DNA of 50,615 nt from a virus (lineage: Duplodnaviria > Heunggongvirae > Uroviricota > Caudoviricetes), in the IMG/VR virus record IMGVR_UViG_2595698869_000001, positions 171,214 to 221,828 of that record. One strand, 5' to 3'. Positions 38,408 through 50,615 of the stretch are shown piece by piece. Below the pieces are notes generated by a model. The model was not told where the DNA came from. It searched no databases and was given only the letters and a program-made list of their open reading frames with translations. The position numbers and the translations under genes were made by a program. How positions within the stretch are numbered: the first letter of the stretch is position 1; the number at the start of each line of letters is the position of its first letter.

Positions 38408-41140
38408 GTGAGCTACTATCCGATCGAGGACCGCGCCAAGGCCCGGTCCGTCGTCAAGAACCTGCTGGACCTTCAGCGCGAGGCGGTCAAGGCCTCTCGC
38501 GGCGGCCTGATCCTGCCGCCCGACCAGAAGGCGATCATCACCCAGGTCACCGAGACCGAGGACCCGGCCCGCTGGGTCGACCTCCTGGGTCAGTTCGCCG
38601 ATCGCGTCCAGACCGATCACCTCGCCCGGCTCAAGCCCCTGGCCAAGCACGACTTCAACGCCTTCTGCGAATACGTCAACCCCGAGGAGGCCCCGGCCTC
38701 CAAGTGGCACGTCTACCTGACCTCGCTCCTCCAGGAGATCGAGAACAACCACGAGCTTGAGCGCTTCGTGCTCAACTGCCCGCCCGGTCACGCCAAGCCG
38801 CTCGACGTCGACACCGAGGTCCTGATGGCCGACGGGTCCTGGAAGCGCCTGGGCGACATCACCGTGGGCGAGTACGTGGTCGGCGAGAGCGGCGCGCGCT
38901 GCAAGGTCACCGCCGTCCACGAGCAGGGCGAGCTTGCCACCCTGAAGATCACCACCGCCCACGGCCGCCAGATCATCGCCGCCCCCGATCACGCCTTCCG
39001 GGTCGGAAACACCTGGAAGGAGGCGGGCAAGCTGCGGCCGGGCGACGCTCTGTCCGTGGTCGGCGCCGCCAACCTCAACTACGACGCCAGCGGCAAGACC
39101 ATCGACCACTTCGAGCTTGCCGCCTACCTCCAGGCCAAGGGCGGACGCTCCTACTTCCACCGCGTCCACAAGAGCGGGCCGAAGACCTACCGCAACGTCT
39201 TCCTGTGGACTTCCGACCACCGCGAGGCCAGCAAGATCAGCGCCTGCCTCAAGCGCCTGGGGATCGCCTTCAAGGGGCGTCTGGCCAAGCACGAGCAGGT
39301 CTGGAAGATGCGTCTGGCCACCGAATGGGGCGACGCCCTGGCCGAGGAGTATGGCCTGGACGCGCGGATCGACGCGCGGCGGGTTCCGGCCTTTGTCACG
39401 AAAGGCGACGAGGAGCAGATCGCCCGCTACCTGTCGACCTACGCCTCCCTGGCCGGCGAGGCGCCCGACCGCTACACCATCCCGCGCATCATCCTCTACT
39501 TCAAGAACCCGGCCTTCGCCCGCGACATCCAGCGGCTGTTCGCCGTGGTCGGCGTCAACGCCCGCATCGAGGGGCGCAAGACCGGCCGCACCCGGCTGAT
39601 CCTGTCGGGGCCGGACCTGGAGGCCTACTTCGCCGCCGGCCTGACCTACACCGGCCCCAACGCCGACAAGCTCGACGACAAGCGCGTGGCCTTCCCGACC
39701 TCGCCCTCGCTGCTGGCCGACACCGTCACCTGGATCGAGCCGCACGGCGTGCGCCCCTGCCGCTGCCTGACCGTCGAGGACGAGCACACCTTCATCGCCG
39801 AAGGCGTGGTGGTCCACAACTCGACCTACGCCTCGCGCCTGTTCGTGGCGTGGCGCCTGGGGCGCGATCCGCGCCAGAAGATCATCGGCGGCGGTCACTC
39901 CCAGCGCTTCGTCGAGAACGAGTTCTCCGGCAAGATTCGCAACCTCGTGCGCACCCCGCAATATCGCGACGTGTTCCCCGACGTGGTCATCGACCACGCC
40001 ACCTCGGCCAAGGACATGTGGGCGATCGCCGGGCACGGCGGGCAGTACGCCGCCAAGGGCGCGGGGCAGGCCATCCACGGTCTGCGCGCCCACTTCGTCT
40101 GCGTCGACGACCCCTACCGGTCGATCGAAGTGGCCGAGTCCGCGATCGAGCGCGAGAAGATCAAGACGTGGTTCTTCGGCGACGTTGGCTCGCGTCTGTT
40201 GCCGCTCGCCAAAGTATTCCTCATCATGACGCGCTTCCATGAGGAAGATTTGACCGGGGAGATCATCAAACTCAACCAAGAAGTTCTCACCGGCGCCGAC
40301 CGTTATCACATCGTTGAAGCGCCCGCCCTGTGCTACGACCCCGAGAACGACGTCCTGGGCCGGGCTCTGGGCGAAGTTTTGTGGGACTACTATGACTTGC
40401 ATTATTTCAAGCGCAAGCGGTCCGAGTGGAAGTACCAAAGATTTGCTTTGGTTTATCAACAACTTGCCGACGCGGCCTCGGACACCTCCATCGCGTCCAA
40501 GTTTCAGACCTACGATCACCTGCCCCACCTGGAGCCGAAGGTGCTCAAGGCCCGGCTTGACGCGGGTCACGCCGACGAGCGCGGGCGGCCGATTCCGGAC
40601 CGCAAGGAGCACTTCCGGCGGGTGGTGGTCAGCGTCGACTCGGCCAACAAGCCCGGCGCCCGCAACGACTACAGCGTCGCCCAGGTCTGGGGGGAGACCC
40701 ACGCCCGCAAGCACTACCTGATCTACCAGGAGCGCAAGAAGGTCGACATCACCGGCCTGACCGAGATGATCGAGCGGGTGGCCAAGCGCTACGAGGTCGA
40801 CGCCATCCTGGTCGAAGACAAGGGCAACGGCACCGCCTACATCCAGGCGCGGGGCCAGACCGACAGCCAGCGGCGGCTCGCCCCGGCCCCGATCGAGGCG
40901 ATCCAGGTCCCGAGCACCTATTCCAAGGAGTTCCGCTTCAACGAGATCGTCCCGATGATCGAGGCCGGCGAGGTCTTCCTGCCGGGCAAGGCCCCGTGGC
41001 TCGACCTGCTGATCCGCGAAATCGGTCAGTTCCCCGAAGGCGCCCATGACGACCAAGTCGACGCCATGACGCAGTACCTCCGCTGGGCCAAGTCCAAGCG
41101 CACGCGGTTCGGCGCGCGCAAGGTCGGCTCGATGGGCTGA
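38408..41140 (+). CDS. terL: terminase large subunit precursor containing an intein (910 aa; ~569 aa after splicing)
   Basis: Split Walker A PPGHAK|ST, Walker B VCVDDP, nuclease motifs VSVDSA, LVEDKGNG, HDDQVDAMTQ. Confidence 0.93.
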   Translation: MSYYPIEDRAKARSVVKNLLDLQREAVKASRGGLILPPDQKAIITQVTETEDPARWVDLLGQFADRVQTDHLARLKPLAKHDFNAFCEYVNPEEAPASKWHVYLTSLLQEIENNHELERFVLNCPPGHAKPLDVDTEVLMADGSWKRLGDITVGEYVVGESGARCKVTAVHEQGELATLKITTAHGRQIIAAPDHAFRVGNTWKEAGKLRPGDALSVVGAANLNYDASGKTIDHFELAAYLQAKGGRSYFHRVHKSGPKTYRNVFLWTSDHREASKISACLKRLGIAFKGRLAKHEQVWKMRLATEWGDALAEEYGLDARIDARRVPAFVTKGDEEQIARYLSTYASLAGEAPDRYTIPRIILYFKNPAFARDIQRLFAVVGVNARIEGRKTGRTRLILSGPDLEAYFAAGLTYTGPNADKLDDKRVAFPTSPSLLADTVTWIEPHGVRPCRCLTVEDEHTFIAEGVVVHNSTYASRLFVAWRLGRDPRQKIIGGGHSQRFVENEFSGKIRNLVRTPQYRDVFPDVVIDHATSAKDMWAIAGHGGQYAAKGAGQAIHGLRAHFVCVDDPYRSIEVAESAIEREKIKTWFFGDVGSRLLPLAKVFLIMTRFHEEDLTGEIIKLNQEVLTGADRYHIVEAPALCYDPENDVLGRALGEVLWDYYDLHYFKRKRSEWKYQRFALVYQQLADAASDTSIASKFQTYDHLPHLEPKVLKARLDAGHADERGRPIPDRKEHFRRVVVSVDSANKPGARNDYSVAQVWGETHARKHYLIYQERKKVDITGLTEMIERVAKRYEVDAILVEDKGNGTAYIQARGQTDSQRRLAPAPIEAIQVPSTYSKEFRFNEIVPMIEAGEVFLPGKAPWLDLLIREIGQFPEGAHDDQVDAMTQYLRWAKSKRTRFGARKVGSMG
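38798..39820 (+). mobile_element. intein (341 aa) with degenerate LAGLIDADG domain, inserted in the TerL Walker A motif
   Basis: Block A PLDVDTEVLMADGSW, block B APDH, block F CRCLTV, block G VVHN followed by S+1. Confidence 0.9.
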
Positions 41141-41213
41141 CGAGGCCCGTTAACCACGTTTGTTAACCTCCGCCGGGGCCTTAACCCTAACACGGCGAGG
41201 GTTAACAGGTCCA

Positions 41214-41349
41214 GGGACCCTTCGAAATTAACCTTTCGGGGACCCTGGGAAATCGTAAGGCAGGGACCCTGGCCATTTTCCGGCTGGGGACCCTGGCAAA
41301 TTCACCGCCGGGGACCCTCCGAAATTCATCCTCGGGGACCCTGGCAAAT
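41214..41349 (+). repeat. six-unit GGGACCCT-N3-AAAT array with 24-bp period
   Basis: GGGACCCT at 41214, 41239, 41263, 41287, 41311, 41335. Confidence 0.9.
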
Positions 41350-41362
41350 CAAGGAGCCGGCG

Positions 41363-41554
41363 ATGGCCGAATTTCTCGCCCTGATCCCCAACCTCGCGCC
41401 GTTCCTGGTCTGGGGAATCCTCCTCTGGATCGCCGCCGAGGTGGTCTGGAGCGTCTGCCTCTGGGTCTATGGCCTGCGGACCCTGTTCAAGTTGCACCGC
41501 GATGATCTGGCCGAGGCGATCAGCTTCGAGCGGGCCTTGAGCCCCTTCGACTAG
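41363..41554 (+). CDS. small membrane protein (63 aa)
   Basis: AAGGAG SD; long hydrophobic segment. Confidence 0.7.
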   Translation: MAEFLALIPNLAPFLVWGILLWIAAEVVWSVCLWVYGLRTLFKLHRDDLAEAISFERALSPFD

Positions 41555-41637
41555 GCGCGGCCTGCCGACCTAAGTCACGGACTGTAGGTTTCGTGACAAG
41601 GTGAGATATTCCACAACGATTTCAAAGGCTTACTGCG

Positions 41638-41886
41638 ATGTCGATCCGCACGTTCTTCCACGATCTGGCCGTCCGTTTCGTCGTTTTGGGGTGGATTTTT
41701 GCCCGAAAACCGCTGAAATGGGCTCCAAAAGGGCATAATTTTCAGCCTAAACCGCCGGTCCAGGTCGGCGCCCTGGCGGCCGGCTCGCTCCTCGCCCTCA
41801 GTCTGGCGCTCGGCGGGCTCTGGTTCCGCTTCACGTTTCCGGACAAAAGTCAAGTGGTCTCGCGCCGGCCGCAGGCTATGTCATAG
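41638..41886 (+). CDS. small membrane protein (82 aa)
   Basis: Two hydrophobic segments; weak SD. Confidence 0.55.
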   Translation: MSIRTFFHDLAVRFVVLGWIFARKPLKWAPKGHNFQPKPPVQVGALAAGSLLALSLALGGLWFRFTFPDKSQVVSRRPQAMS

Positions 41887-41947
41887 ACCGTGGGCTTCGT
41901 GACCAGATCACGCTTCCGTTACCGCTCCAGCCCTTGTGAGGCCTCGG

Positions 41948-42052
41948 ATGTTCGCCTTTCTCCGCCGGCTCAGCCTCGCCGCCGTCCATGGCGTGCTCTG
42001 GGCGATCCTCCTGGCGATGCTCGCCCTGGGCGGGCCGCGCCGCCCGCTCTAA
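41948..42052 (+). CDS. very small membrane peptide (34 aa), absent from ORF track
   Basis: MFAFLRRLSLAAVHGVLWAILLAMLALGGPRRPL; GAGG SD. Confidence 0.5.
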   Translation: MFAFLRRLSLAAVHGVLWAILLAMLALGGPRRPL

Positions 42053-42104
42053 AGCGTCATATCTGACGCCTAAGGCCCCCTAAGGCCTCATCTGTGAGAC
42101 ATTC

Positions 42105-42140
42105 AACGCCCTCGTGTTCCTCTGAACGCGGGGGCGTTTT
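42105..42140 (+). terminator. intrinsic terminator
   Basis: 15-bp stem (2 G-U pairs), CTCT loop, T-run. Confidence 0.7.
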
Positions 42141-42247
42141 GACGTCGGCGCATTTTTGACTTGACGCGCGAGCGTTTTGACGCGGGCGCATTTTTGATTC
42201 GACGGGCGAGCGTTTTGACGTCCGAGCATTTTTCAACTTGACGTCGT
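42134..42247 (+). repeat. three tandem 38-bp repeats
   Basis: GCGTTTTGACG..GCATTTTT units start at 42134, 42172, 42210. Confidence 0.85.
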
Positions 42248-42266
42248 TCCATTTACCGGGAGCGCC

Positions 42267-42440
42267 TTAGGGTTAACGCCGGCCGCCGAGCCCTGGGGCG
42301 ATTTACCACCGCCACGTTAACCTAACGCCTGTTAACCTATCGGTTGTTAAGGTTAACGCCCCGTTAGGGTTAACGCCCCTTAACCCTGCCCGCGTTAAGG
42401 TTAACGCGCCCCGGCCCAGGCCCTACCCGTTAACCTTAAC
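42267..42440. repeat. dense TTAA/GTTAAC cluster (CtrA half-site-like)
   Basis: 11 TTAA in ~170 bp; exact 14-mers TTAGGGTTAACGCC x2 and GTTAAGGTTAACGC x2. Confidence 0.8.
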
Positions 42441-42462
42441 CGCCCGACCCCCGCGCCCAGGC

Positions 42463-42498
42463 CATACCCGGTAGGGCCTGACGGCCCTACCGGGTATG
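42463..42498. repeat. perfect 16-bp inverted repeat
   Basis: CATACCCGGTAGGGCC-TGAC-GGCCCTACCGGGTATG. Confidence 0.9.
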
Positions 42499-42551
42499 AC
42501 CCCGCGCCCCGGCGGAGGCCAGGGACCGCCCCGGCGCTTTTTCGCGCCCCG

Positions 42552-42583
42552 TTTACCTTTTGTTAACGTCTGGCCTCTAGGGT
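42552..42583 (+). promoter_or_regulatory. CtrA-box promoter 1
   Basis: TTTA-N7-TTAA-N11-TAGGGT. Confidence 0.7.
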
Positions 42584-42631
42584 CGCCCTTGTCCCCGCCG
42601 CACTCCCGCGCCGGGCAAGGAGCTTCCCGCC

Positions 42632-42817
42632 ATGGTCCCCGACTCGATCATGAACCCCCGCGACCACTTCCACCGCCTGCGCGAGGAAACCGCCCGCGCT
42701 CTGGTCGAGGCCTTCGCCGAATCCGACCCCGGCGAGGATTACCGCGCCGAGGAAAAGGCCGGCGCGTGGGTTGTCGCCTATTACGACGCGGCGGGCGAAT
42801 TCGTCGCCTATCTCTAG
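42632..42817 (+). CDS. hypothetical protein (61 aa)
   Basis: AAGGAG SD. Confidence 0.7.
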   Translation: MVPDSIMNPRDHFHRLREETARALVEAFAESDPGEDYRAEEKAGAWVVAYYDAAGEFVAYL

Positions 42818-42841
42818 CCGCCTTCGCCCCCTGGCGCCGCG

Positions 42842-42873
42842 TTAACGGTTTGTTAACATGTCGGCGCCAGGGT
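42842..42873 (+). promoter_or_regulatory. CtrA-box promoter 2
   Basis: Perfect TTAA-N7-TTAA, then N11-CAGGGT. Confidence 0.7.
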
Positions 42874-42916
42874 CGCCCTAGCCCGGCGCGTCGCCGCGCC
42901 TTCGGAGAAAACCGCC

Positions 42917-43720
42917 ATGCTCTACACCCCCGCCGCCCGCCGCCTTCGCGGCTATCGCGAAACCGCCGCGAAGAACGCCGAAATTCACGCCCGCCCGCAC
43001 ATGGCCGGCAACGTCGCCGGCTACAACGAGTCGGTGTGGCCGACGACGGCGCTAGGCGTCGCCGCCAAGGCCGGCGCCTTCAAGCGCCCCGAAACCGCCG
43101 GCAACTGGTCGGAGGATCGCAAAGCCTATTACGCCCCCGCGTGGCCGGCCGGCTGGCGCGTGCTGGGCACGGCCGAAGAGGTCTGCCGCAAGGAAGGCTC
43201 GCGCCGGGTGGAACATTCCGGATGGTACACGACGCCCGACGACTACAGCGCCACGCTTTCGGGCTATGTGCTGCAAATCCCCGCCCGCGACGGCCGCCCG
43301 CAATACGTCGCCGGGACCGCCCATAGTGAATGGGACGGGGTGACCCTCTACCCCGCCGACCGCTACGACAACCCGCTTGACGCGGCGAGCGCCGCCGACC
43401 GTCACGCCGAACGCGACGCCGAAGAGGAACGCGAATATCAAACCGCGTGGCAAGCGGGCCAGCGCTACGCCGAACTCGGCGCCGAAGCCAAGGAGGCCCG
43501 CAAGGAAGCGCTGGCGATCCTCGCCGAACGCCGCAAGGTCAAGGGGCTGGAAACCCCCGCCTTGTGCGGCGCGATCCGGGCGCAAGTCGCGGCCCTGCTA
43601 GGCCGGATCGAAGAGGCGCGCGCCTCGCGCGCCAAGCTCAAGGAAGGCGAGGACTCGCGCCTCATGTTCTACCCCTCCGCCGCCATGGTCGCGGCCTTCA
43701 ATGACGGCGCGGCGTCGTGA
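42917..43720 (+). CDS. hypothetical protein (267 aa)
   Basis: GGAG SD. Confidence 0.8.
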   Translation: MLYTPAARRLRGYRETAAKNAEIHARPHMAGNVAGYNESVWPTTALGVAAKAGAFKRPETAGNWSEDRKAYYAPAWPAGWRVLGTAEEVCRKEGSRRVEHSGWYTTPDDYSATLSGYVLQIPARDGRPQYVAGTAHSEWDGVTLYPADRYDNPLDAASAADRHAERDAEEEREYQTAWQAGQRYAELGAEAKEARKEALAILAERRKVKGLETPALCGAIRAQVAALLGRIEEARASRAKLKEGEDSRLMFYPSAAMVAAFNDGAAS

Positions 43721-43926
43721 AGGTCGCCCGCGATAGCTTCGCCGTGTTCTGGACCCTCCCGCAAGGCGGGGTCCAATTTCACGCCGACATAAAACGGGCG
43801 CTCTATCCGACCGCCCGCGACGCCGCCCGCGCTTTTAGCGCCATGTTCCCCCGTGACCGGGTCCGGAGCGTCCGCGACGCCTCCGGCCGCTTCCTGGCCT
43901 TCAAGGAGTCCGCCCCGTGCGCCTGA
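43717..43926 (+). CDS. hypothetical protein (69 aa)
   Basis: GTGA coupling. Confidence 0.65.
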   Translation: MKVARDSFAVFWTLPQGGVQFHADIKRALYPTARDAARAFSAMFPRDRVRSVRDASGRFLAFKESAPCA

Positions 43927-44198
43927 CAAGCTACAACGTCAACGGAACCGGCTTTAAGGGCGGCTCCGCCCCGCCCGTCCCCGCCCAAGGCCTGACCGGT
44001 CACGCCGACGGCTTGAACCTTTGGGTTCCCTCGCGCGAGCATATCGCCGCCATGCTCCCGCAACGCTGGCGCCACGCCTTCGCCCGCGCGTCGTTTTGGT
44101 ATGACGCGCACGACAATAAAAAGCCGTGTCGCGCCGACCTCTACGACTCGCGCGGCCGGTACCTGACTCAGGTCTGGGCGCACCCGGTTTTCAGCTAG
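43917..44198 (+). CDS. hypothetical protein (93 aa)
   Basis: AAGGAG SD. Confidence 0.7.
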   Translation: MRLTSYNVNGTGFKGGSAPPVPAQGLTGHADGLNLWVPSREHIAAMLPQRWRHAFARASFWYDAHDNKKPCRADLYDSRGRYLTQVWAHPVFS

Positions 44199-44204
44199 GC
44201 CAGG

Positions 44205-44233
44205 ACGCCCCGGAAAATCTTCCGGGGCGTTTA
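44205..44233 (+). terminator. intrinsic terminator overlapping CtrA box
   Basis: ACGCCCCGGAA / TTCCGGGGCGT 11-bp stem. Confidence 0.6.
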
Positions 44234-44261
44234 CCTTTTGTTAACCTCTGGCCTCTAGGGT
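44230..44261 (+). promoter_or_regulatory. CtrA-box promoter 3
   Basis: TTTA-N7-TTAA-N11-TAGGGT. Confidence 0.75.
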
Positions 44262-44319
44262 GACTTTCGCCGCCGGGCAATCCCGCCCGCCGGACCCTCT
44301 TTCAAGGATTGCTCCCGTC

Positions 44320-45369
44320 ATGACCTCTCATTCCATGGTCGCGCACCGTTGGGCGCAGGACGACGAGAACGGCCGCACCGCGCGCGGCTTCAACATGTAT
44401 TTCGAGCGCTACGGGCGCGGCGCCGACCGCGTCAACGTGATTTTTTCCTACGGGACTCACTTCCCGGCCGCCGCCTTCGTGACCGACGCGCACGGCCGCC
44501 GCGTGGTTCTGGTGACGACTCGCGGCTACAGCGTTTCGACCGCGAAACACCTTTCCCACATCCGCCGCGCCATCCCGTCCGGGACCCCCTGCTTTTCCGT
44601 GCCGCACGTGTCGCGGATGCACAAGCCGGGCGGGTCGGGCGACTTCCACGGGGACAACCTGCGCGCCTATGTCGAGAGCGCCGCCGGCCTCGCCGAAAAG
44701 GCCAAGCGCGCCCGCGTCAACGGCCCTTGGCTGCTTAGCCAAGCCCGCGAAACCCTCGCCGAAGCGCAACGCTACGCCGACGCCTTCAAGCTGAAAACCA
44801 AGGTTCCGGCCTTGGAAGACGTCGCCGGCCAATGGGCGAAGATGACGGCCGCCAAGGCGCGGGCCGAAGCCAAGGCCAAGCGTGACGCCGAAAAGGCCGC
44901 CAAGGCGCGCCGCGAAGCCGAACGGCTCGCCGACGCCGAAGCCTTCGCCGCTTGGATGCGCGGCGAGCGCCAGAGCGCCCCGTTTAGCTACCGGGTGCGC
45001 GATGACGGGACCGTCTATCTTCGCCGCTTCCGGGGCGTGGTCCGCGACCTGCGCAGCCAAGAGCGCGACGGCTCGCGCGTCGATGAACTGCAAACCTCGC
45101 AAGGCGCGGCCGTGCCGTGGGAACACGCGGTCAAGGCCTTCCGGTTCATCAAGCTTTGCCGCGAACGCGGCGAGAGCTTCCACCGCAACGGCCGGGTGAT
45201 TCGCGTCGGACACTTCCAAGTTGACGCGATCAGCCCGAACGGGGACATGACGGCCGGTTGTCACCGGTTCGCGTGGGATGAAATCGAACGCCTCGCCAGG
45301 GCCGAAGGGGTTTTCGACCTCCCCGCCGACGCTGGCGCCGTCGAAACCCGGCAAGCCGAACCGGCCTAA
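44320..45369 (+). CDS. hypothetical protein (349 aa)
   Basis: AAGGA SD favours ATG 44320; track start 44260 lies in the -10 box. Confidence 0.8.
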   Translation: MTSHSMVAHRWAQDDENGRTARGFNMYFERYGRGADRVNVIFSYGTHFPAAAFVTDAHGRRVVLVTTRGYSVSTAKHLSHIRRAIPSGTPCFSVPHVSRMHKPGGSGDFHGDNLRAYVESAAGLAEKAKRARVNGPWLLSQARETLAEAQRYADAFKLKTKVPALEDVAGQWAKMTAAKARAEAKAKRDAEKAAKARREAERLADAEAFAAWMRGERQSAPFSYRVRDDGTVYLRRFRGVVRDLRSQERDGSRVDELQTSQGAAVPWEHAVKAFRFIKLCRERGESFHRNGRVIRVGHFQVDAISPNGDMTAGCHRFAWDEIERLARAEGVFDLPADAGAVETRQAEPA

Positions 45370-45387
45370 GCCTCCCCGCCCCTCTCG

Positions 45388-45414
45388 CGCCCCGGCTCCC
45401 CGCCGGGGCGTTTT
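45388..45414 (+). terminator. intrinsic terminator
   Basis: CGCCCCGGC / GCCGGGGCG stem plus TTTT. Confidence 0.75.
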
Positions 45415-45424
45415 CGTGTACGCG

Positions 45425-45456
45425 GTAACCTTTTGTTAACTTCTGGCCTCTAGGGT
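45425..45456 (+). promoter_or_regulatory. CtrA-box promoter 4
   Basis: GTAA-N7-TTAA-N11-TAGGGT; 60 of 61 nt identical to promoter 3 plus leader. Confidence 0.75.
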
Positions 45457-45504
45457 GACTTTCGCCGCCGGGCAATCCCGCCCGCCGGCCAAGGATCGCA
45501 GACT

Positions 45505-45804
45505 ATGAATCTTTTCGTTGTCGCCATTGACCCCGCCCTCATCCCTTCGGCCGCCGGCTTCGTGGTCGCCTCCCCCTACGGGTGCGGCAAGTGGCGCGCG
45601 TGCGTCGGGAGCGAGGCGGACATGATCGCGCTTCGCGACAAGATGCGCCGCGCGCACCCGGCCCCGGAAGGCTACAGCGTCCAGCCCCTGGCGTCGTTCC
45701 TGGCCTATCTGGAGACGGTCGGGGATAGCCCTTATGACCGGTTCCGCGCCCATGACGCCGCCGCCCGCATCCTTGACACCCTGACGACGCATCTCGCCGC
45801 CTAG
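45505..45804 (+). CDS. hypothetical protein (99 aa)
   Basis: AAGGA SD. Confidence 0.75.
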   Translation: MNLFVVAIDPALIPSAAGFVVASPYGCGKWRACVGSEADMIALRDKMRRAHPAPEGYSVQPLASFLAYLETVGDSPYDRFRAHDAAARILDTLTTHLAA

Positions 45805-45862
45805 CCCCGCCAAGCCCCCGGCCGCGCGCCGGGGGCGCTTTCCCTCGAAAGGATCGCCGACC

Positions 45863-46174
45863 ATGACAACCCGTCTTATCGCCGTTCGCGGCCCGACCGC
45901 CGCCGAACTCGCCGACCCGTCCAGCCGCGCGGGCGGCGCCGAAGTCGTTTTCGAGCGCCGCGACCGCGAAGGCCGCACGCGCCTTGTGTTCGCCTCGACC
46001 TGCTACGGCTCATATCAGCAATGGGGCGAAACCCGCGACGTGCTCGCCGACAACGTCGAGGCGGTCACGCTCTGGGCCGAAGGCATGGCGGCCGTTGCCG
46101 CCCTCATCGACGAGAGCGACGACGACGACGAGAGCGACGACGCCCCGGCCGAAGATGACGACGGGGAGGCGTGA
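45863..46174 (+). CDS. hypothetical protein with acidic tail (103 aa)
   Basis: AAGGA SD; ends DESDDDDESDD... Confidence 0.75.
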   Translation: MTTRLIAVRGPTAAELADPSSRAGGAEVVFERRDREGRTRLVFASTCYGSYQQWGETRDVLADNVEAVTLWAEGMAAVAALIDESDDDDESDDAPAEDDDGEA

Positions 46175-46177
46175 GCC

Positions 46178-46597
46178 ATGCGCACAACCAAGGCTCAACG
46201 CTTCGCCGCCATCGCCTTTGACGCCCTGGCCAAGGCCCTAAGCGAGCCGCGCCAAGCCGTCGCCCGCGTGACCAAATGGGAGGGCGCGGGCCATAGCTTC
46301 GCCAACCTGCAACGCGATTATGAGCGGTACGGCCCCGGCGCCCGCTCATGGTTCGGCCGGGCTGAAATGCGCTTCTTTGGGACGCGCCTAGAGGCCGCGC
46401 CGCTGGATTTCCCGGCGCTGGGCTGCACCCTCTTTCTGACCTCCGAAACCCCGCCCGGCGCCGGCCGGGTCTGGACCCTTCGCGCCTATGTCTGGGCTTC
46501 GGCCGATATCACCACGCTAACCCATGGCGACGAAACCGACGCGGCGACCGCGCAAGCGGCCTTTGACCTGCTTTGGCGGGTCCTTTCCGGACAGTAA
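46178..46597 (+). CDS. conserved phage hypothetical protein (139 aa)
   Basis: GGAGG SD; WF...MRFFGTR...FLTSE. Confidence 0.75.
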   Translation: MRTTKAQRFAAIAFDALAKALSEPRQAVARVTKWEGAGHSFANLQRDYERYGPGARSWFGRAEMRFFGTRLEAAPLDFPALGCTLFLTSETPPGAGRVWTLRAYVWASADITTLTHGDETDAATAQAAFDLLWRVLSGQ

Positions 46598-46625
46598 CCT
46601 TTTGTTAACTTCTGCCCGCTAGGGT
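46594..46625 (+). promoter_or_regulatory. CtrA-box promoter 5
   Basis: GTAA-N7-TTAA-N11-TAGGGT. Confidence 0.75.
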
Positions 46626-46675
46626 CTTCTTGCGGCCGGGCAATCCCGCCCGGCCGCATCTTGGAGACAGCGCCC

Positions 46676-46948
46676 ATGACCCGCGCTCAAGCCCTCGCCG
46701 ACATGAACGCCCTTCCCGGTATCATCGCCTCCTTTGAGCGCGAGACGGGCGAATATCGCGTGACCCTGCGCTTTGGCCCGCTCCCCATGGGGCGCGGCGC
46801 CCAAGAGTGGATGCGCGCGCGCCGCGAAGCCGTCGCCAGCTACAGCGACGACAAGGCCGACGCCCTGGCCACCGCCCGCGACATGTCCGCCCGCTGGGAG
46901 GCGATGAGCGCCGAAGAGCGTTCGCGCCTCTATCACAACCCCGCCTAA
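46676..46948 (+). CDS. hypothetical protein (90 aa)
   Basis: GGAGA SD. Confidence 0.7.
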   Translation: MTRAQALADMNALPGIIASFERETGEYRVTLRFGPLPMGRGAQEWMRARREAVASYSDDKADALATARDMSARWEAMSAEERSRLYHNPA

Positions 46949-47014
46949 GACCCCGCGCGCCGCCCTGGCCTTCGCCGGGGCGGCTCCCTCAACCCCTCGC
47001 AAGGATCGCACCCC

Positions 47015-47299
47015 ATGACCGCCCGTAAGCCCCTGACCAAGGAACAAAAGGCCCGCCGCCGCGCGACCCGCCGCGCCGCCCGCCTCAACTGGTCGGATGA
47101 GCGCCGCGCTCGCGAATTCGAGCGTCAAGCCCGCTTCTTCCTGATGATCGCCACCCGCGCCCAAGGCGCCGGCCAAGGCCAGGAAGCCGCCCGCCTCGCC
47201 ACGGTCGCACAACGCAAGGTGACTAACTGGCGCATGGCGCAGGCCTGCGCCCGGATTAACGCCCTGGCCGCGCATCCGTTCGCGGCCGTGGTCGCCTAA
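47015..47299 (+). CDS. hypothetical basic protein (94 aa)
   Basis: AAGGA SD. Confidence 0.75.
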   Translation: MTARKPLTKEQKARRRATRRAARLNWSDERRAREFERQARFFLMIATRAQGAGQGQEAARLATVAQRKVTNWRMAQACARINALAAHPFAAVVA

Positions 47300-47312
47300 G
47301 GAGGCCCGCCCG

Positions 47313-47495
47313 ATGACGCACCCTCACGCCCTGGCGCTGATCGCCCTCGCCGAAAAGGTGTTACCGCTTACCCGGCTGCACCCGCTCGACCAACGCGCCG
47401 CCGCCGTCGATCTAATCGGCGACCTCTACCGCCTCGCCGACGATATCGACGCGACCCCGCAAGCCCCCGCCCTGACGCAACCGAAGGCCGCCTAA
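47313..47495 (+). CDS. hypothetical protein (60 aa)
   Basis: AAGGAGG SD. Confidence 0.7.
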   Translation: MTHPHALALIALAEKVLPLTRLHPLDQRAAAVDLIGDLYRLADDIDATPQAPALTQPKAA

Positions 47496-47498
47496 GCC

Positions 47499-48089
47499 AT
47501 GAACCCGAACCGCTACCGCCTCGCGCCCCGCGACCGCTTCAGCCGTGAGCTTGCCGAAACGCTCTATCAGGCGGCCGAAGCCGTCGCCCGCGTGATTCCG
47601 CTCATGCCGGAGTCCGCCCCCGATGAGCGCCGCGCGCTGGGCAAGGTCCGCGCCGACCTTCTAACCCATAGCGCCGGCGCCCTTGTTCCCAAGCCGCCGG
47701 CCGCCGTGCTCGAAACCCTCGTTTGGGTTGTCGAGATGGCGCAAGATCGCGCGACTAACGCCGATTTCAACACCGCCCAAGAAGGACTCGACGAGCACGA
47801 GTCCCTAGCCTTTGTCGCCGACTGGCTGGAAGCCGAAGGCCAGGACGTGACGCCGATTCGCAACGCGCAACCGTCCGCCGACGCCCTGGCCGAACTCGCC
47901 GCCCGCCGCGACGCCGAACAAGCGGCGCTAGACGCCTTGGAGGCCGAAGCCCTGGCCGAAGCGCCGGGCGACGTGATCACCGACGCCTTGCGCCCCTATC
48001 TGGGCGCCGCCCTGGCCGAAAACCACGCCGACGACGTGCTAGACGCCCTCACGCGCGCCGGCTTCCAAATCACCCGCAAGGAGGCCTAA
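47499..48089 (+). CDS. hypothetical protein (196 aa)
   Basis: ORF in an unbroken + strand run. Confidence 0.75.
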   Translation: MNPNRYRLAPRDRFSRELAETLYQAAEAVARVIPLMPESAPDERRALGKVRADLLTHSAGALVPKPPAAVLETLVWVVEMAQDRATNADFNTAQEGLDEHESLAFVADWLEAEGQDVTPIRNAQPSADALAELAARRDAEQAALDALEAEALAEAPGDVITDALRPYLGAALAENHADDVLDALTRAGFQITRKEA

Positions 48090-48094
48090 AGCCC

Positions 48095-48673
48095 ATGACC
48101 GACTCCGCCAAGATCACCGGCGCGCTCGCGCTACTCGCCATCGCGGCCGATAATCTCCGCCAAGGCCCGGCCATGTCCAAGGCCGCCGACAACGTCACCA
48201 ACGTCTGTAACTACGCCCTGACGCGCGCGACCATGCTCAAGGCCGCCGACCAAATCGGCGAGGCGCTGGAGGCGCTGGGCGCCCTGCAAGCGGGCGGCTA
48301 TGTGATCGCCCGCCGCCGCGACGTTTTCACCGATGCGGGCGAGAAGCTGGGCGACCTGTTGGCGGCGCTTTATGACGCCGTCCCGAACTACGCCGTAAGA
48401 TCGCAGCGCCTCGCCGACGCCCTGAGTCCCGCGCGAAATTACGTCTATCAGCCCCGGTTCCGGGTCAAGCTGGACGCCGCGCCCGGCGCGCTTTTGACCG
48501 ACTGCGACACGGGCGCAACGGTCTATTTCCAGCCGGGCGACGACGCCGACGCCTTCCGGGCCGAATTCGCCCCGTGGGTTCACGCCGCCAACGTGACGGC
48601 CGAAGGCGCGGCCCTGGCCTCGATGATGAACCCGACCGCCGAAGAGTATTTCAGCCCCGCCACGGGGGTCTAA
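48095..48673 (+). CDS. hypothetical protein (192 aa)
   Basis: AAGGAGG SD. Confidence 0.75.
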   Translation: MTDSAKITGALALLAIAADNLRQGPAMSKAADNVTNVCNYALTRATMLKAADQIGEALEALGALQAGGYVIARRRDVFTDAGEKLGDLLAALYDAVPNYAVRSQRLADALSPARNYVYQPRFRVKLDAAPGALLTDCDTGATVYFQPGDDADAFRAEFAPWVHAANVTAEGAALASMMNPTAEEYFSPATGV

Positions 48674-48678
48674 CGCCC

Positions 48679-48981
48679 GTGGCCCTGACCTTCGCCCCGC
48701 AATCGACGCGCTACGCCGTGGAAGTCCCCGAACGCGACTTTCTGGCCCTGACCCGCGCCGAGGAAATTCTAGCCCCTGGCCCCTATCTGGAGCCGTCGCT
48801 TAGCGAGCGTTTGGAGGCGCAAGCCGGCGTTTGGGATGTCGAGTATAACGGCCATTTCGGCGCGGCCGTTTACTTGACGCTCGACGTTGACGCCGACTCC
48901 CCGGCCGCCCGCGACGCCCTGGCCTCGATCATCGCCGACCAACTGGCCAAGGCCAAGGCGTGGAAGCGCCAGCCCGCCTAA
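48679..48981 (+). CDS. hypothetical protein (100 aa)
   Basis: GTG 5 nt after upstream stop. Confidence 0.65.
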   Translation: MALTFAPQSTRYAVEVPERDFLALTRAEEILAPGPYLEPSLSERLEAQAGVWDVEYNGHFGAAVYLTLDVDADSPAARDALASIIADQLAKAKAWKRQPA

Positions 48982-49162
48982 GTCATCATTCCTATCGTCT
49001 ATGACTTGTCACCGGCCGAACTCTTGCCCGGTGACAGTCTGGGCAAGTAAAGCTCACTCTGGATTTTATGACTTAGCGCAAAGGATTGAAATTGCTCGAA
49101 AAATTCCTCGAAGCTCACAAAGTTGTTTTCTGGCTGCTTTTGCTGGCCTGTTTGTGGCGCTT

Positions 49163-49195
49163 TTAACGGTTTGTTAACCCCTGGCCCTCTAGGGT
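49163..49195 (+). promoter_or_regulatory. CtrA-box promoter 6
   Basis: Perfect TTAA-N7-TTAA-N12-TAGGGT. Confidence 0.75.
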
Positions 49196-49249
49196 CGAAT
49201 TCCCGGCGCGGCAATCCCGCCGCCCGGCCTTCCTTCGGAGCTTCTGATC

Positions 49250-49696
49250 ATGTTCGCTTCCGTGACCCTTCCCGCCCATGACGCCCAAGGCCTGAGCCTC
49301 GAAACCGTCCACATGGTTTTCGCCCGCGAACTGGCGCAACATTTCGACCACGTGATTTCCGCCCCCGTGGTCGAAAGCTGGCGCGACGAGGACACCGGCG
49401 CCGACCACGCGCAAGCCGCCGTTTGCTTCACCGTCTCGGCGACCCCCGCCGCGTGGGAAGCCAAGGGCGGGCGCCTCGCGCGCCGGCTGGAAAACCTCGC
49501 CGCGCGCTATGCCGCCGACTGCGACGCCCCGGCCCTGACTGTCACCCACTGCGACGGCCAAACGGTCTATGTCGGCGCTCTGGAAGCCCTGGCGCGCCCC
49601 GCCCCGGTGCAAGGCCCGACCCGTGAGGCGGACCCGGCTTTCCTCCCCCGCCAGCGTGAGGACAAGGCCGCCCGCTTCGATCGCCTGACCGCCTAG
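49250..49696 (+). CDS. hypothetical protein (148 aa)
   Basis: GGAG SD. Confidence 0.75.
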   Translation: MFASVTLPAHDAQGLSLETVHMVFARELAQHFDHVISAPVVESWRDEDTGADHAQAAVCFTVSATPAAWEAKGGRLARRLENLAARYAADCDAPALTVTHCDGQTVYVGALEALARPAPVQGPTREADPAFLPRQREDKAARFDRLTA

Positions 49697-49712
49697 CCCC
49701 TGGCCTCCCCCT

Positions 49713-49745
49713 AGCGCACCGCCCCTAGAAAGGCGGTGCGCTTTT
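49713..49745 (+). terminator. intrinsic terminator
   Basis: AGCGCACCGCC / GGCGGTGCGCT stem plus T-run. Confidence 0.75.
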
Positions 49746-49754
49746 CTGTGTCTG

Positions 49755-49787
49755 TTTACTTGTTGTTAAGGAATAGCCTGCTAGTGT
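49755..49787 (+). promoter_or_regulatory. CtrA-box promoter 7
   Basis: TTTA-N7-TTAA-N12-TAGTGT. Confidence 0.65.
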
Positions 49788-49838
49788 CCCCTTGTTGGCG
49801 GACGCATCCCGCGCCCGCCCCTTTCTGGATCGCTCCCC

Positions 49839-50231
49839 ATGGCTCGCCCCTCTGACCTGCTCAACGTCAACGCCGCCCGCGTCCTGGCTTGCCTTGAGCC
49901 TATCGCCGCCGCCGCTAAGACCGCCCCGGCCGCCGACCGCGCCGCCCTTTCCTACCTGCTCGACGCTGGCGAGTATGTCGCCGCGTGGCGCCGCAACCTC
50001 ACGGAAACCGACCGCCGCAAGGCCTATGGCGCGGCCTGCGCCGCCGAAGCCCTGGCGCTCGCTAACGCCTATCAGCCCGCCACCCTGCAAGGCGGCGCCG
50101 TCCGCCGCGCTCTGGGCGCCTATGCCGCCGCCCTAAAGGTCCTGCTAGACGGGGAGCCGGTCAAGGCGGTGCGCGCCGCCGAAGGCGCGGCGCTTTCGGT
50201 CCGCGCTCGCTACGCCAACACCCGCCTTTAA
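49839..50231 (+). CDS. hypothetical Ala-rich protein (130 aa)
   Basis: Follows promoter 7; its stop TAA lies in the next CtrA box. Confidence 0.7.
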   Translation: MARPSDLLNVNAARVLACLEPIAAAAKTAPAADRAALSYLLDAGEYVAAWRRNLTETDRRKAYGAACAAEALALANAYQPATLQGGAVRRALGAYAAALKVLLDGEPVKAVRAAEGAALSVRARYANTRL

Positions 50232-50259
50232 CCTCTTGTTAACACCTCCCGGCTATGGT
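50228..50259 (+). promoter_or_regulatory. CtrA-box promoter 8
   Basis: Perfect TTAA-N7-TTAA-N11-TATGGT. Confidence 0.7.
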
Positions 50260-50285
50260 CGGGAGGTCGCAAGGAGACACCCGAC

Positions 50286-50480
50286 ATGACCCGCCCCGGC
50301 CCCGCCTCGCTCCTGACCCCGCAAGCCCGCTTCTCGTCGCCGCGCGTCCTGATCCTTCCGGGCGCGGCTCCCATGCCGATTCGCCAGCCGCGCGGCCTTT
50401 GCGCCGTCGAGTGCGTCGCCCTTGGCGTGACGCTGGGCGCGGCGCTCTACCTCGCCGCCCGCGTGTTCGGTCTGGTCTGA
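50286..50480 (+). CDS. small protein with C-terminal TM (64 aa)
   Basis: AAGGAG SD; hydrophobic C-terminus. Confidence 0.65.
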   Translation: MTRPGPASLLTPQARFSSPRVLILPGAAPMPIRQPRGLCAVECVALGVTLGAALYLAARVFGLV

Positions 50481-50513
50481 CCAGACCCCCGCCCCGCCCC
50501 CGGTCGGACCGGT

Positions 50514-50544
50514 CGGGGGTGTGTCCCATAATGACACACCCCCG
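50514..50544. repeat. perfect 12-bp inverted repeat near window end
   Basis: CGGGGGTGTGTC-CCATAAT-GACACACCCCCG. Confidence 0.85.
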
Positions 50545-50615
50545 CCACCTAGTATCTTTTTTGATTCGGAGGGACCCAAAGGCCCCCTACGTTAACCATT
50601 TTTGGCGGCGCCCCC

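Follow-up and report, generated by a model that had tools for sequence, protein, structure and literature searches.

A conserved stem-loop in the leaders of CtrA-type promoters in the terminal-repeat early region of a phiCbK-like Caulobacter phage

Stem-loops at the very 5' end of a bacterial or phage message reportedly stabilize it, as Emory, Bouvet and Belasco described in 1992 for the ompA and papA leaders of Escherichia coli. In lambda-type nut sites, a boxA element is joined to a boxB hairpin (loop GAAAA or GAAGA) that is bound by N, and the arrangement occurs at two promoters. In ANTAR-regulated leaders, two hexaloop hairpins stand in tandem, each with A in the first and G in the fourth loop position, and the staphylococcal RNAs RNAIII and RsaE have UCCC loops. 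For 5'-terminal structures, protection from the pyrophosphohydrolase/RNase E pathway is the best-established function (PMC3997798). The PeSL (promoter-early stem-loop) cassettes of T4-type phages pair a promoter with a stem-loop that is a transcription terminator (PMC2839356, PMC4122927), and loop A of the Caulobacter RNA CcnA is a C-rich apical loop, CCCC, that pairs with G-rich Shine-Dalgarno (SD) regions (PMC8959179). Here, we analyzed a hairpin with an A(A)UCCC loop that recurs behind CtrA-type promoters in IMG/VR record IMGVR_UViG_2595698869_000001. The stretch studied (the window; 50,615 nucleotides [nt], positions 171,214 to 221,828 of the record) makes up the final 50.6 kb of a phage genome that is 221,828 bp long and carries direct terminal repeats of 10,254 bp. 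An original prediction, made from the letters of the window, had proposed a covarying leader hairpin downstream of six CtrA promoters, with a loop complementary to the SD. We find that the hairpin stands at a fixed distance from these promoters and that its tip is kept across phage genera while its stem changes and stays paired; the proposed pairing of loop and SD finds no such backing.

Hairpins at the predicted 5' ends of CtrA-driven messages

The segment from 42.5 to 50.6 kb of the window is 93 to 97% identical to the terminal-repeat region of the Caulobacter phages phiCbK, Magneto, and Ccr2, and the window represents the early, terminal-repeat region of a Caulobacter phage of the phiCbK type. 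The terminal-repeat stretch begins directly after the large terminase gene, the same position that has been described for the phiCbK phage group (PMC3556154). CtrA boxes are known to crowd the terminal repeats of phiCbK-like phages; in phiCbK, binding of CtrA has been shown by electrophoretic mobility shift assay, and the promoters of gp005 and gp018 were ctrA dependent in reporters (PMC9437464). In the window, the word TTGTTAAS occurs 10 times, always on the + strand and always between 41160 and 50236 (0.19 occurrences expected). Eight of these sites are complete promoters (Table 1), with a TTAA-N7-TTAAC-like box, a spacer of 9 to 10 nt, and CTAGGGT or a close variant as the -10 element.

All six stem-loops of the original prediction are present with the loops claimed for them, and each lies where it had been placed, downstream of a CtrA promoter: 10 to 14 nt past a -10 (CTAGGGT or CTAGTGT) that stands behind a TTAA-N7-TTAAC-type box. 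Beyond these six, we found a seventh leader hairpin, with a UCGC loop (hairpin 2), and an eighth promoter (promoter 8). The tip has the common form GC-(A/C)0-2-UCCC-GC in six of the seven window hairpins. The UCGC hairpin lies at the same distance from its -10, so that the position of the hairpin is more general than the A(A)UCCC loop.

Phage transcription starts were predicted from the spacing of host CtrA promoters. In the host, the 5' nucleotide of the full TTAA-N7-TTAA motif lies at -38 to -40 relative to starts from global 5' rapid amplification of cDNA ends, with ccrM (-38), the CcnA RNA (-38), and ctrA P2 (-39) as mapped examples (PMC4287350). Applied to the phage, this spacing places the start on a conserved TTG, 7 to 9 nt beyond the final T of the -10; a sigma-70-type -10 would give the same start position. 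Relative to these predicted starts, the first paired base of the seven window hairpins falls, in order, at +4, +5, +2, +1, -1, +1, and +3. Seven of the eight CtrA promoters thus have a hairpin at -1 to +5 of the predicted start, close to the approximately 0 to 4 nt between 5' end and stem that marks a 5'-terminal stabilizer. Chance hairpins are common in this 67% GC genome, where 13 to 18% of random positions qualify by the same rule; the binomial P value is ∼4 × 10−5, a figure that overstates independence, since two of the cassettes are identical. Those two, behind promoters 44238 and 45433, are the same over ∼65 bp, from about -35 through the hairpin, and hence are not independent copies. 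In a wider set of 80 distinct leaders from 13 phages, 69 carry the hairpin, with the first paired base mostly at 0 to +4 of the predicted start. From these predicted starts, the hairpin is expected to be the very 5' end of the message, comprising its first 22 to 28 nt.

In predicted folds, the SD lies mostly outside the hairpin and the loop is unpaired. A terminator scan flagged true terminators immediately ahead of three promoters but none of the leader hairpins, which lack a U tail or T run. On the same grounds, we ruled out the leader hairpins as attenuators.

Table 1. CtrA-type promoters and leader hairpins in the window (positions are those of the window; first pairs are relative to predicted starts; E values are from the covariance model)
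Feature	Coordinates	Strand	Sequence elements	Predicted start or first pair	Model E value	Remarks
CtrA-type promoter 1 (42560)	42552..42583	+	box TTTACCTTTTGTTAAC 42552-42567; -10 CTAGGGT 42577-42583	start ∼42590-42591		
Leader hairpin 1	42594..42615	+	CCCGCCGC / ACUCCC (42602-42607) / GCGCCGGG	first pair ∼+4	2e-3	one C.C mismatch
CtrA-type promoter 2 (42850)	42842..42873	+	box 42842-42857; -10 CCAGGGT 42867-42873			
Leader hairpin 2	42885..42900	+	GGCGCG / UCGC / CGCGCC	first pair ∼+5		different loop class
CtrA-type promoter 3 (44238)	44230..44261	+	box 44230-44245; -10 44255-44261			intrinsic terminator upstream, 44203-44232
Leader hairpin 3	44270..44293	+	CCGCCGGGC / AAUCCC (44279-44284) / GCCCGCCGG	first pair ∼+2	3e-6	
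CtrA-type promoter 4 (45433)	45425..45456	+	box 45425-45440; -10 45450-45456			terminator upstream, 45387-45411
Leader hairpin 4	45464..45489	+	GCCGCCGGGC / AAUCCC (45474-45479) / GCCCGCCGGC	first pair ∼+1	3e-6	one C.C mismatch
CtrA-type promoter 5 (46602)	46594..46625	+	box 46594-46609; -10 46619-46625			
Leader hairpin 5	46631..46658	+	AAUCCC (46642-46647)	first pair ∼-1/+1	8e-7	perfect 11-bp stem; folding z -2.8
CtrA-type promoter 6	49163..49195	+	box 49163-49178; -10 49189-49195			
Leader hairpin 6	49203..49227	+	CCGGCGCGGC / AAUCCC (49213-49218) / GCCGCCCGG	first pair ∼+1	1e-5	one bulged C
CtrA-type promoter 7	49755..49787	+	box 49755-49770; -10 CTAGTGT 49781-49787			terminator upstream, 49713-49742
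Leader hairpin 7	49797..49819	+	GGCGGACGC / AUCCC (49806-49810) / GCGCCCGCC	first pair ∼+3/+4	7e-4	A.C mismatch
CtrA-type promoter 8 (50236)	50228..50266	+	-10 CTATGGT; 7-bp inverted repeat CCTCCCG/CGGGAGG (50245-50251, 50260-50266) around the -10			no leader hairpin

Conservation, covariation, and strand and region specificity

We compared the terminal-repeat or post-terminase regions of 15 phages. The promoter-hairpin arrangement is kept in Shapirovirus (phiCbK, Magneto, Swift, Ccr2, and Ccr29), in the Poindextervirus lineage (Rogue, BL10, RBC8, and BL57), and in Colossusvirus (Colossus and PW). In the Brevundimonas phage Bajun, whose terminase DNA is ∼78% identical, GAGGC-AAUCCC-GCCUC stands behind one CtrA-type promoter at the same distance, presenting the identical 10-nt tip GCAAUCCCGC on a different stem. 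The Bertelyvirus phages CcrSC and CcrBL9 and the Sphingobium phage Lacusarx have no such hairpin in these regions and carry paired CtrA boxes upstream of TTGAC-type promoters. Between the cassettes, genes have been inserted or replaced in Ccr2, Ccr29, Rogue, BL57, and RBC8.

Whole genomes were then searched with a covariance model (R1) built from 31 distinct copies in 11 phages. Training copies match this model by construction, and the informative part is the lack of matches elsewhere together with the extra matches outside the training set. In the phage's own 222-kb genome, the model found six sites (each twice, once per repeat), all on the + strand with E values of 8 × 10−7 to 2 × 10−3, and nothing else at an E value of <0.05. 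All matches with an E value of <0.01 in Rogue, BL57, Colossus, PW, and Bajun lay in the early region. In six of six genomes with matches, the element is on the transcribed strand and in the terminal-repeat or early region only. No match with an E value of up to 0.1 was found in Bambus, CcrBL9, or Lacusarx. Apart from a single weak match outside the repeat in CcrSC (E value of 0.02) and a single marginal one in Kikimora (E value of 0.012), Bertelyvirus, the large Brevundimonas phages, and Lacusarx lack the element. A strict pattern of promoter plus tip matched only Rogue and BL10 in IMG/VR; among 185,579 prokaryote genomes it gave one match, on a 43% GC contig unrelated to these phages, which we judged to be chance.

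The original prediction had noted that the stems differ in sequence yet keep pairing, and this covariation is real on the 31 distinct copies: 81.3% of the cells in the 10-bp stem are paired, compared to 64.4% with shuffled partners (0 of 500 shuffles as high), and pairing falls to 36 to 50% when the partner column is slid by 1 to 3 positions. The shuffle test ignores relatedness; the slid controls and the cross-genus case are independent of it. At the third pair from the loop (columns 10 and 21), 17 copies have GC and 14 have CG with none unpaired; at the fifth (columns 8 and 23), 17 have GC and 10 have CG; and the fourth includes one A-U, in Bajun. In hairpin 7 of BL57, both unpaired A.C bases are lost, leaving a perfect 8-bp stem. 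The tip behaves differently from the stem. Six columns never change: G11, C12, G19, and C20, which make up the two closing pairs, and C17 and C18 of the loop. Columns A13, T15, and C16 are conserved at a level of at least 94%, and every one of the 31 loops reads A(A/C)UCCC or AUCCC. Free variation is seen in the columns outside the stem and in the leader on both sides. These patterns suggest an element selected as a folded single strand in the transcription sense, with the SD left free. In 14 of the 31 copies, moreover, the sixth pair from the loop (columns 7 and 24) is interrupted by a C.C mismatch or a single-base bulge; this recurrent irregularity may be part of the recognized shape.

The tip sequence also occurs at a few sites outside the repeats. 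An intergenic, terminator-like hairpin at G000:C1:53160-53197 of the phage's own genome, with 16 bp and a U-rich tail, has the identical GCAAUCCCGC tip (model E value of 0.09) and is the sole other hairpin with this loop in the 201 kb of nonrepeat genome. The 10-mer GCAATCCCGC has two more + strand copies in an RNA-gene island (G000:C1:102591 and 102877/102995), one antisense to a tRNA anticodon arm and the other pairing with GGGATTGC 118 nt downstream in a large structured RNA. In total, there are three extra + strand copies of the 10-mer, compared to ∼0.4 expected; those in the RNA island are probably coincidental.

The view of the original prediction that this is an apparently undescribed cis element of CtrA-driven leaders stands. 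A cmscan search of positions 40000 to 50615 against Rfam, with permissive filters and E values of up to 1, returned 0 matches. The words "hairpin," "leader," "UTR," and "secondary structure" do not occur in connection with these promoters in the CtrA-phage paper (PMC9437464) or the phiCbK genome paper (PMC3556154), and a further literature search found no description of a leader hairpin. While the CtrA promoters were already known, the hairpin family is apparently new to Rfam and to the literature searched.

Candidate functions of the hairpin

Our preferred reading, to which we give an even chance, combines two roles: a 5'-terminal RNA stem-loop that shields the 5' end of the message and a tip that serves as a recognition site for a putative factor. 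In this model, host RNA polymerase activated by CtrA would make the early messages from the terminal repeat, each beginning with the hairpin as its first 22 to 28 nt. The hairpin would belong to a duplicated cassette of terminator, CtrA box and -10, hairpin, and SD, in which selection keeps the stem paired. Because the stem starts 0 to 4 nt from the predicted 5' end, shielding is most likely the basic job of the structure; it would act against 5'-end-dependent decay, that is, pyrophosphate removal and RNase E entry. Such shielding could prolong the life of immediate-early mRNAs whose promoters need a host factor that does not persist through the cell cycle; CtrA is cleared at the swarmer-to-stalked transition. 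The tip is more conserved than a plain stabilizer requires and is therefore probably also a recognition site. Its two closing pairs (G-C and C-G) and A(A)UCCC loop would form a sequence-specific site for a putative host or phage factor that treats these messages as a set.

Several observations weigh against this combined reading. The 5' ends of the phage transcripts rest on prediction, and RNA contigs break at the repeated cassettes: in RNA-seq of phiCbK infection, contig ends fall either at such cassettes (44264, 45451, and 45459) or at run-dependent places (42523 to 42581) and are uninformative on starts. Many of the copies are orthologues or paralogues of one another, and we estimate only 5 to 8 independent compensatory events. 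The core stem has no G.U pairs, so that selection on the RNA strand is not directly distinguished from selection on DNA, and non-Watson-Crick pairs in it are too few for counts of G.U versus A.C to serve as a test. The folding energies of the leaders are unremarkable for their GC content (z of -0.5 to -2.8, and +0.5 in one leader, against dinucleotide shuffles). Loop identity is not obligatory, since the loop differs among orthologous leaders: BL57 has GAUCG (MTRAQALA gene), Rogue, Swift, and RBC8 have CCAC/CCAG, and Colossus and PW have the AUCGG and ACGGU classes. Finally, no candidate binding protein was found by Pfam scans of ten early proteins or by genome searches for ANTAR and cold-shock domains (CSD).

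The invariance of the tip across two host genera, together with the presence of other loops in orthologous leaders, suggests a subset of messages marked for a sequence-specific factor. A bolder version of this idea, which we offer tentatively and think more likely to be wrong than right, is that the tip is the address label of a dedicated putative RNA-binding factor, encoded by the phage or conserved in Caulobacteraceae, that controls all CtrA-driven immediate-early messages jointly. Such a factor might stabilize, silence, or cleave them, and it would make a new hairpin-protein pair that couples the early program to the host cell cycle posttranscriptionally.

The strongest rival, although in our estimate an unlikely one, inverts the emphasis. 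Here, the tip would be primarily a boxB-like site recognized by a dedicated protein (or RNA) of phage or host origin, with 5'-end protection incidental. The factor would act on the entire CtrA-driven set, whether through antitermination at the terminator closing each unit, through repression of translation, or through targeted cleavage that shuts early expression off. The original prediction had raised a boxB-like protein-binding or antitermination site; in its favor, the loop and closing pairs stay invariant on changing stems and flanks in four phage genera or lineages from two host genera. Each unit has a real terminator before or after it, half of the copies have the C.C mismatch or bulge at the sixth pair that is seen in many protein-binding hairpins, and the identical 10-nt tip recurs on one more terminator-like hairpin in another part of the genome. 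However, there is no conserved boxA-like partner: the flanks of the six hairpins share no word beyond the SD, and CUCUUUCAA occurs in the 44238 leader only. The loop is not GNRA-like, other loop classes replace A(A)UCCC at orthologous positions, and every unit has its own promoter, making read-through unneeded. No N-like protein was recognized among the early proteins scanned. The protein-by-protein Pfam scan, which covered ten early proteins, gave nothing RNA-binding (no family for nine and only DUF7447 for the tenth), although short arginine-rich peptides can escape such a scan. A six-frame search of the genome found no ANTAR domain at E values of up to 1, and the genome has no cold-shock domain. 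As for an RNA partner, a search for phage RNAs that expose GGGAUU, the complement of the loop, gave only candidates that we dismissed as tRNA arms, coding sequence, or an internal helix of a large noncoding RNA.

We regard it as very improbable that the element works at the DNA level, with GCAATCCCGC at approximately +10 to +20 as the operator of an early-promoter repressor and the flanking symmetry as part of the site. The element lies just past the start, a suitable place for a roadblock; its core, an asymmetric word of 10 bp, keeps a single orientation; and there are no G.U pairs to prove pairing in RNA. A protein site, however, does not require that the flanking arms change and stay complementary, as they do here, and the arms vary in length, mismatches, and bulges. 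Known regulators offer no match either. Nothing in rows 1 to 3 and 13 to 15 of the ChIP motif tables for phiCbK TgrL and host XRE resembles the word, and in our own comparison, the published SciP motif GCGNC-N5-GNCGC (PMC4287350) misfits the AAUCCC copies.

Equally small is the probability we assign to a functionless passenger, a hairpin carried along by duplicating and recombining promoter cassettes, with its conservation reflecting shared ancestry. Two window cassettes are indeed identical over ∼65 bp, Colossus and PW have cassette families each with its own stem and loop, and hairpins are common at this GC content. Against this, the flanks from the -10 to the hairpin and from the hairpin to the SD have diverged while the tip is unchanged and changes in the stem are compensated, the tip persists in a Brevundimonas phage with ∼78% identical terminase DNA, and the position relative to the predicted start is fixed.

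Least probable of all is the second mechanism raised in the original prediction, a pseudoknot in which the loop base-pairs with the SD farther along its own message and masks it until opened; we rejected it as the main function. The complementarities listed for it are present letter for letter (GGATTGC at 44306 to 44312 and others), and the UCC(C) of the loop is complementary to the GGA of every SD; pairing of a C-rich loop with G-rich leader motifs has a precedent in Caulobacter, CcnA loop A (PMC8959179). Yet these matches are no better than those of hairpin-less genes. The loop alone matches the 25 nt before the start codon over 4, 5, 4, 3, 3, and 4 nt in the six hairpin genes, whereas AATCCC matches 3 to 4 nt in hairpin-less genes of the same region wherever an SD exists. 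The long match at 44306 (7 of 7) includes two stem bases, the closing ones, and the Ccr29 orthologue has GGATCGC there. No covariation of loop and SD was seen in orthologues: the loop of the first gene is ACUCCC in the window, GAUCCC in Ccr29, and ACUUCC in BL10, with a different hairpin (CCAC/CCAG) in Rogue, Swift, and RBC8, but its SD is GGAG or AGGA throughout. AUCGG, ACGGU, UCGC, and CUGGAAA loops also occur at this position. The distance from stem foot to SD is 3, 12, 3, 4, 9, and 7 nt in the six leaders, and on geometric grounds, the linkers of 3 to 4 nt in three of them are too short to reach the tip of an 8- to 11-bp stem. In predicted folds, moreover, the loop is free and the SD mostly open.

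A separate complementarity to the SD lies ahead of the hairpin. At promoters 42560, 45433, and 46602, and at most of those in Rogue, BL10, Colossus, and PW, the stretch between the -10 and the start (CCTCCTTG, CTCTTG, or TTCTTG; -7 to +1) is similar to the 3' end of 16S rRNA, and it is also complementary to the SD that follows the hairpin. We rejected an extension of the stem by pairing of this pyrimidine-rich CYYCTTG with the SD: given the calibrated starts, its position of -7 to +1 would restrict it to read-through RNA. In simulated read-through, SD accessibility fell from 0.40 to 0.24, but shuffling the nine bases from -9 to -1 gave only 0.29, and the effect is largely generic.

Neighboring sequence features and comparison with known systems

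Promoter 50236 represents a second CtrA promoter design, in which a 6- to 7-bp inverted repeat (CCTCCCG-GCTATGGT-CGGGAGG) surrounds the -10 and no leader hairpin follows. The same design is found in Rogue (L002:6744), BL10 (L003:6289), and RBC8 (L009:6866). Its -10 would occupy the hairpin loop in read-through RNA or single-stranded DNA, and its leader is only ∼20 nt long. Between the terminase gene and promoter 1, the segment from 41147 to 42460 contains three repeat features: dense GTTAAC and TTAAGGTTAAC words that resemble CtrA half-sites, six GGGACCCT repeats spaced ∼24 bp apart (41214 to 41345), and GCGTTTTGAC and GCATTTTTGA repeats in alternation (42130 to 42240). This array is kept in all relatives compared and may be a packaging, replication, or CtrA-titrating region. 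Farther downstream, an AT-rich island (48985 to 49165) flanked by GC-rich genes contains an inverted repeat, TGTCACCGG...CCGGTGACA, at approximately 49009 to 49036. Nearby, the phiCbK RNA-seq contigs have 92 other letters in place of 48655 to 48978, marking a position that varies between close relatives.

Work on the Caulobacter cell cycle uses phiCbK as its standard phage, and the terminal-repeat genes of phiCbK are expressed first and depend on CtrA. If the preferred reading is correct, an RNA element shared by exactly these messages would add a posttranscriptional layer to CtrA dependence, and it could explain how messages outlive a promoter whose activator has been degraded or how they are later switched off as a group. 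The element also offers a short, defined bait (10-nt tip and 5-bp stem) for finding the putative factor, along with a set of natural variants. Although the more striking mechanism of the original prediction fails, the hairpin appears to be a clean, testable motif in a model phage, with a function proposed from sequence comparison.

Among described systems, C-rich-loop regulatory RNAs share with this element an exposed UCCC or CCCC loop on a GC stem. These RNAs act in trans, whereas here the mRNA itself carries the loop in cis, and pairing of the loop with the SD is unsupported. ANTAR leaders differ in more ways: here, there is a single hairpin, loop position 4 is C, and no ANTAR domain was found in the genome.

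The PeSL cassettes are closer in arrangement. Like them, the locus consists of repeated promoter-plus-stem-loop modules in a variable early region rich in ORFans, whose gene content differs among close relatives, and its 8 kb contain eight cassettes, including one identical pair, between which the gene content has been reshuffled. In contrast to PeSLs, the hairpin here follows the start and lacks a U tail, separate terminators lie upstream, and the promoter is CtrA dependent. The terminator scan, which flagged none of the leader hairpins, likewise sets them apart from the PeSL stem-loop.

With lambda nut sites, the element has in common a short hairpin with a conserved 5- to 6-nt loop and a variable stem, carried on early transcripts with terminators downstream. 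It differs in having no boxA, an A(A)UCCC loop, six to eight promoters, and no N-like protein recognized among the early proteins scanned, in a phage that is not lambdoid.

The 5'-terminal stabilizers resemble it in a GC-rich hairpin with few unpaired nucleotides ahead of it, an accessible SD after it, and its use by many unrelated genes. For the phage hairpin, the start sites are predicted and the stabilizing role is proposed from them. The stabilizers need no particular loop, whereas here the loop and the two closing pairs are invariant across phage genera.

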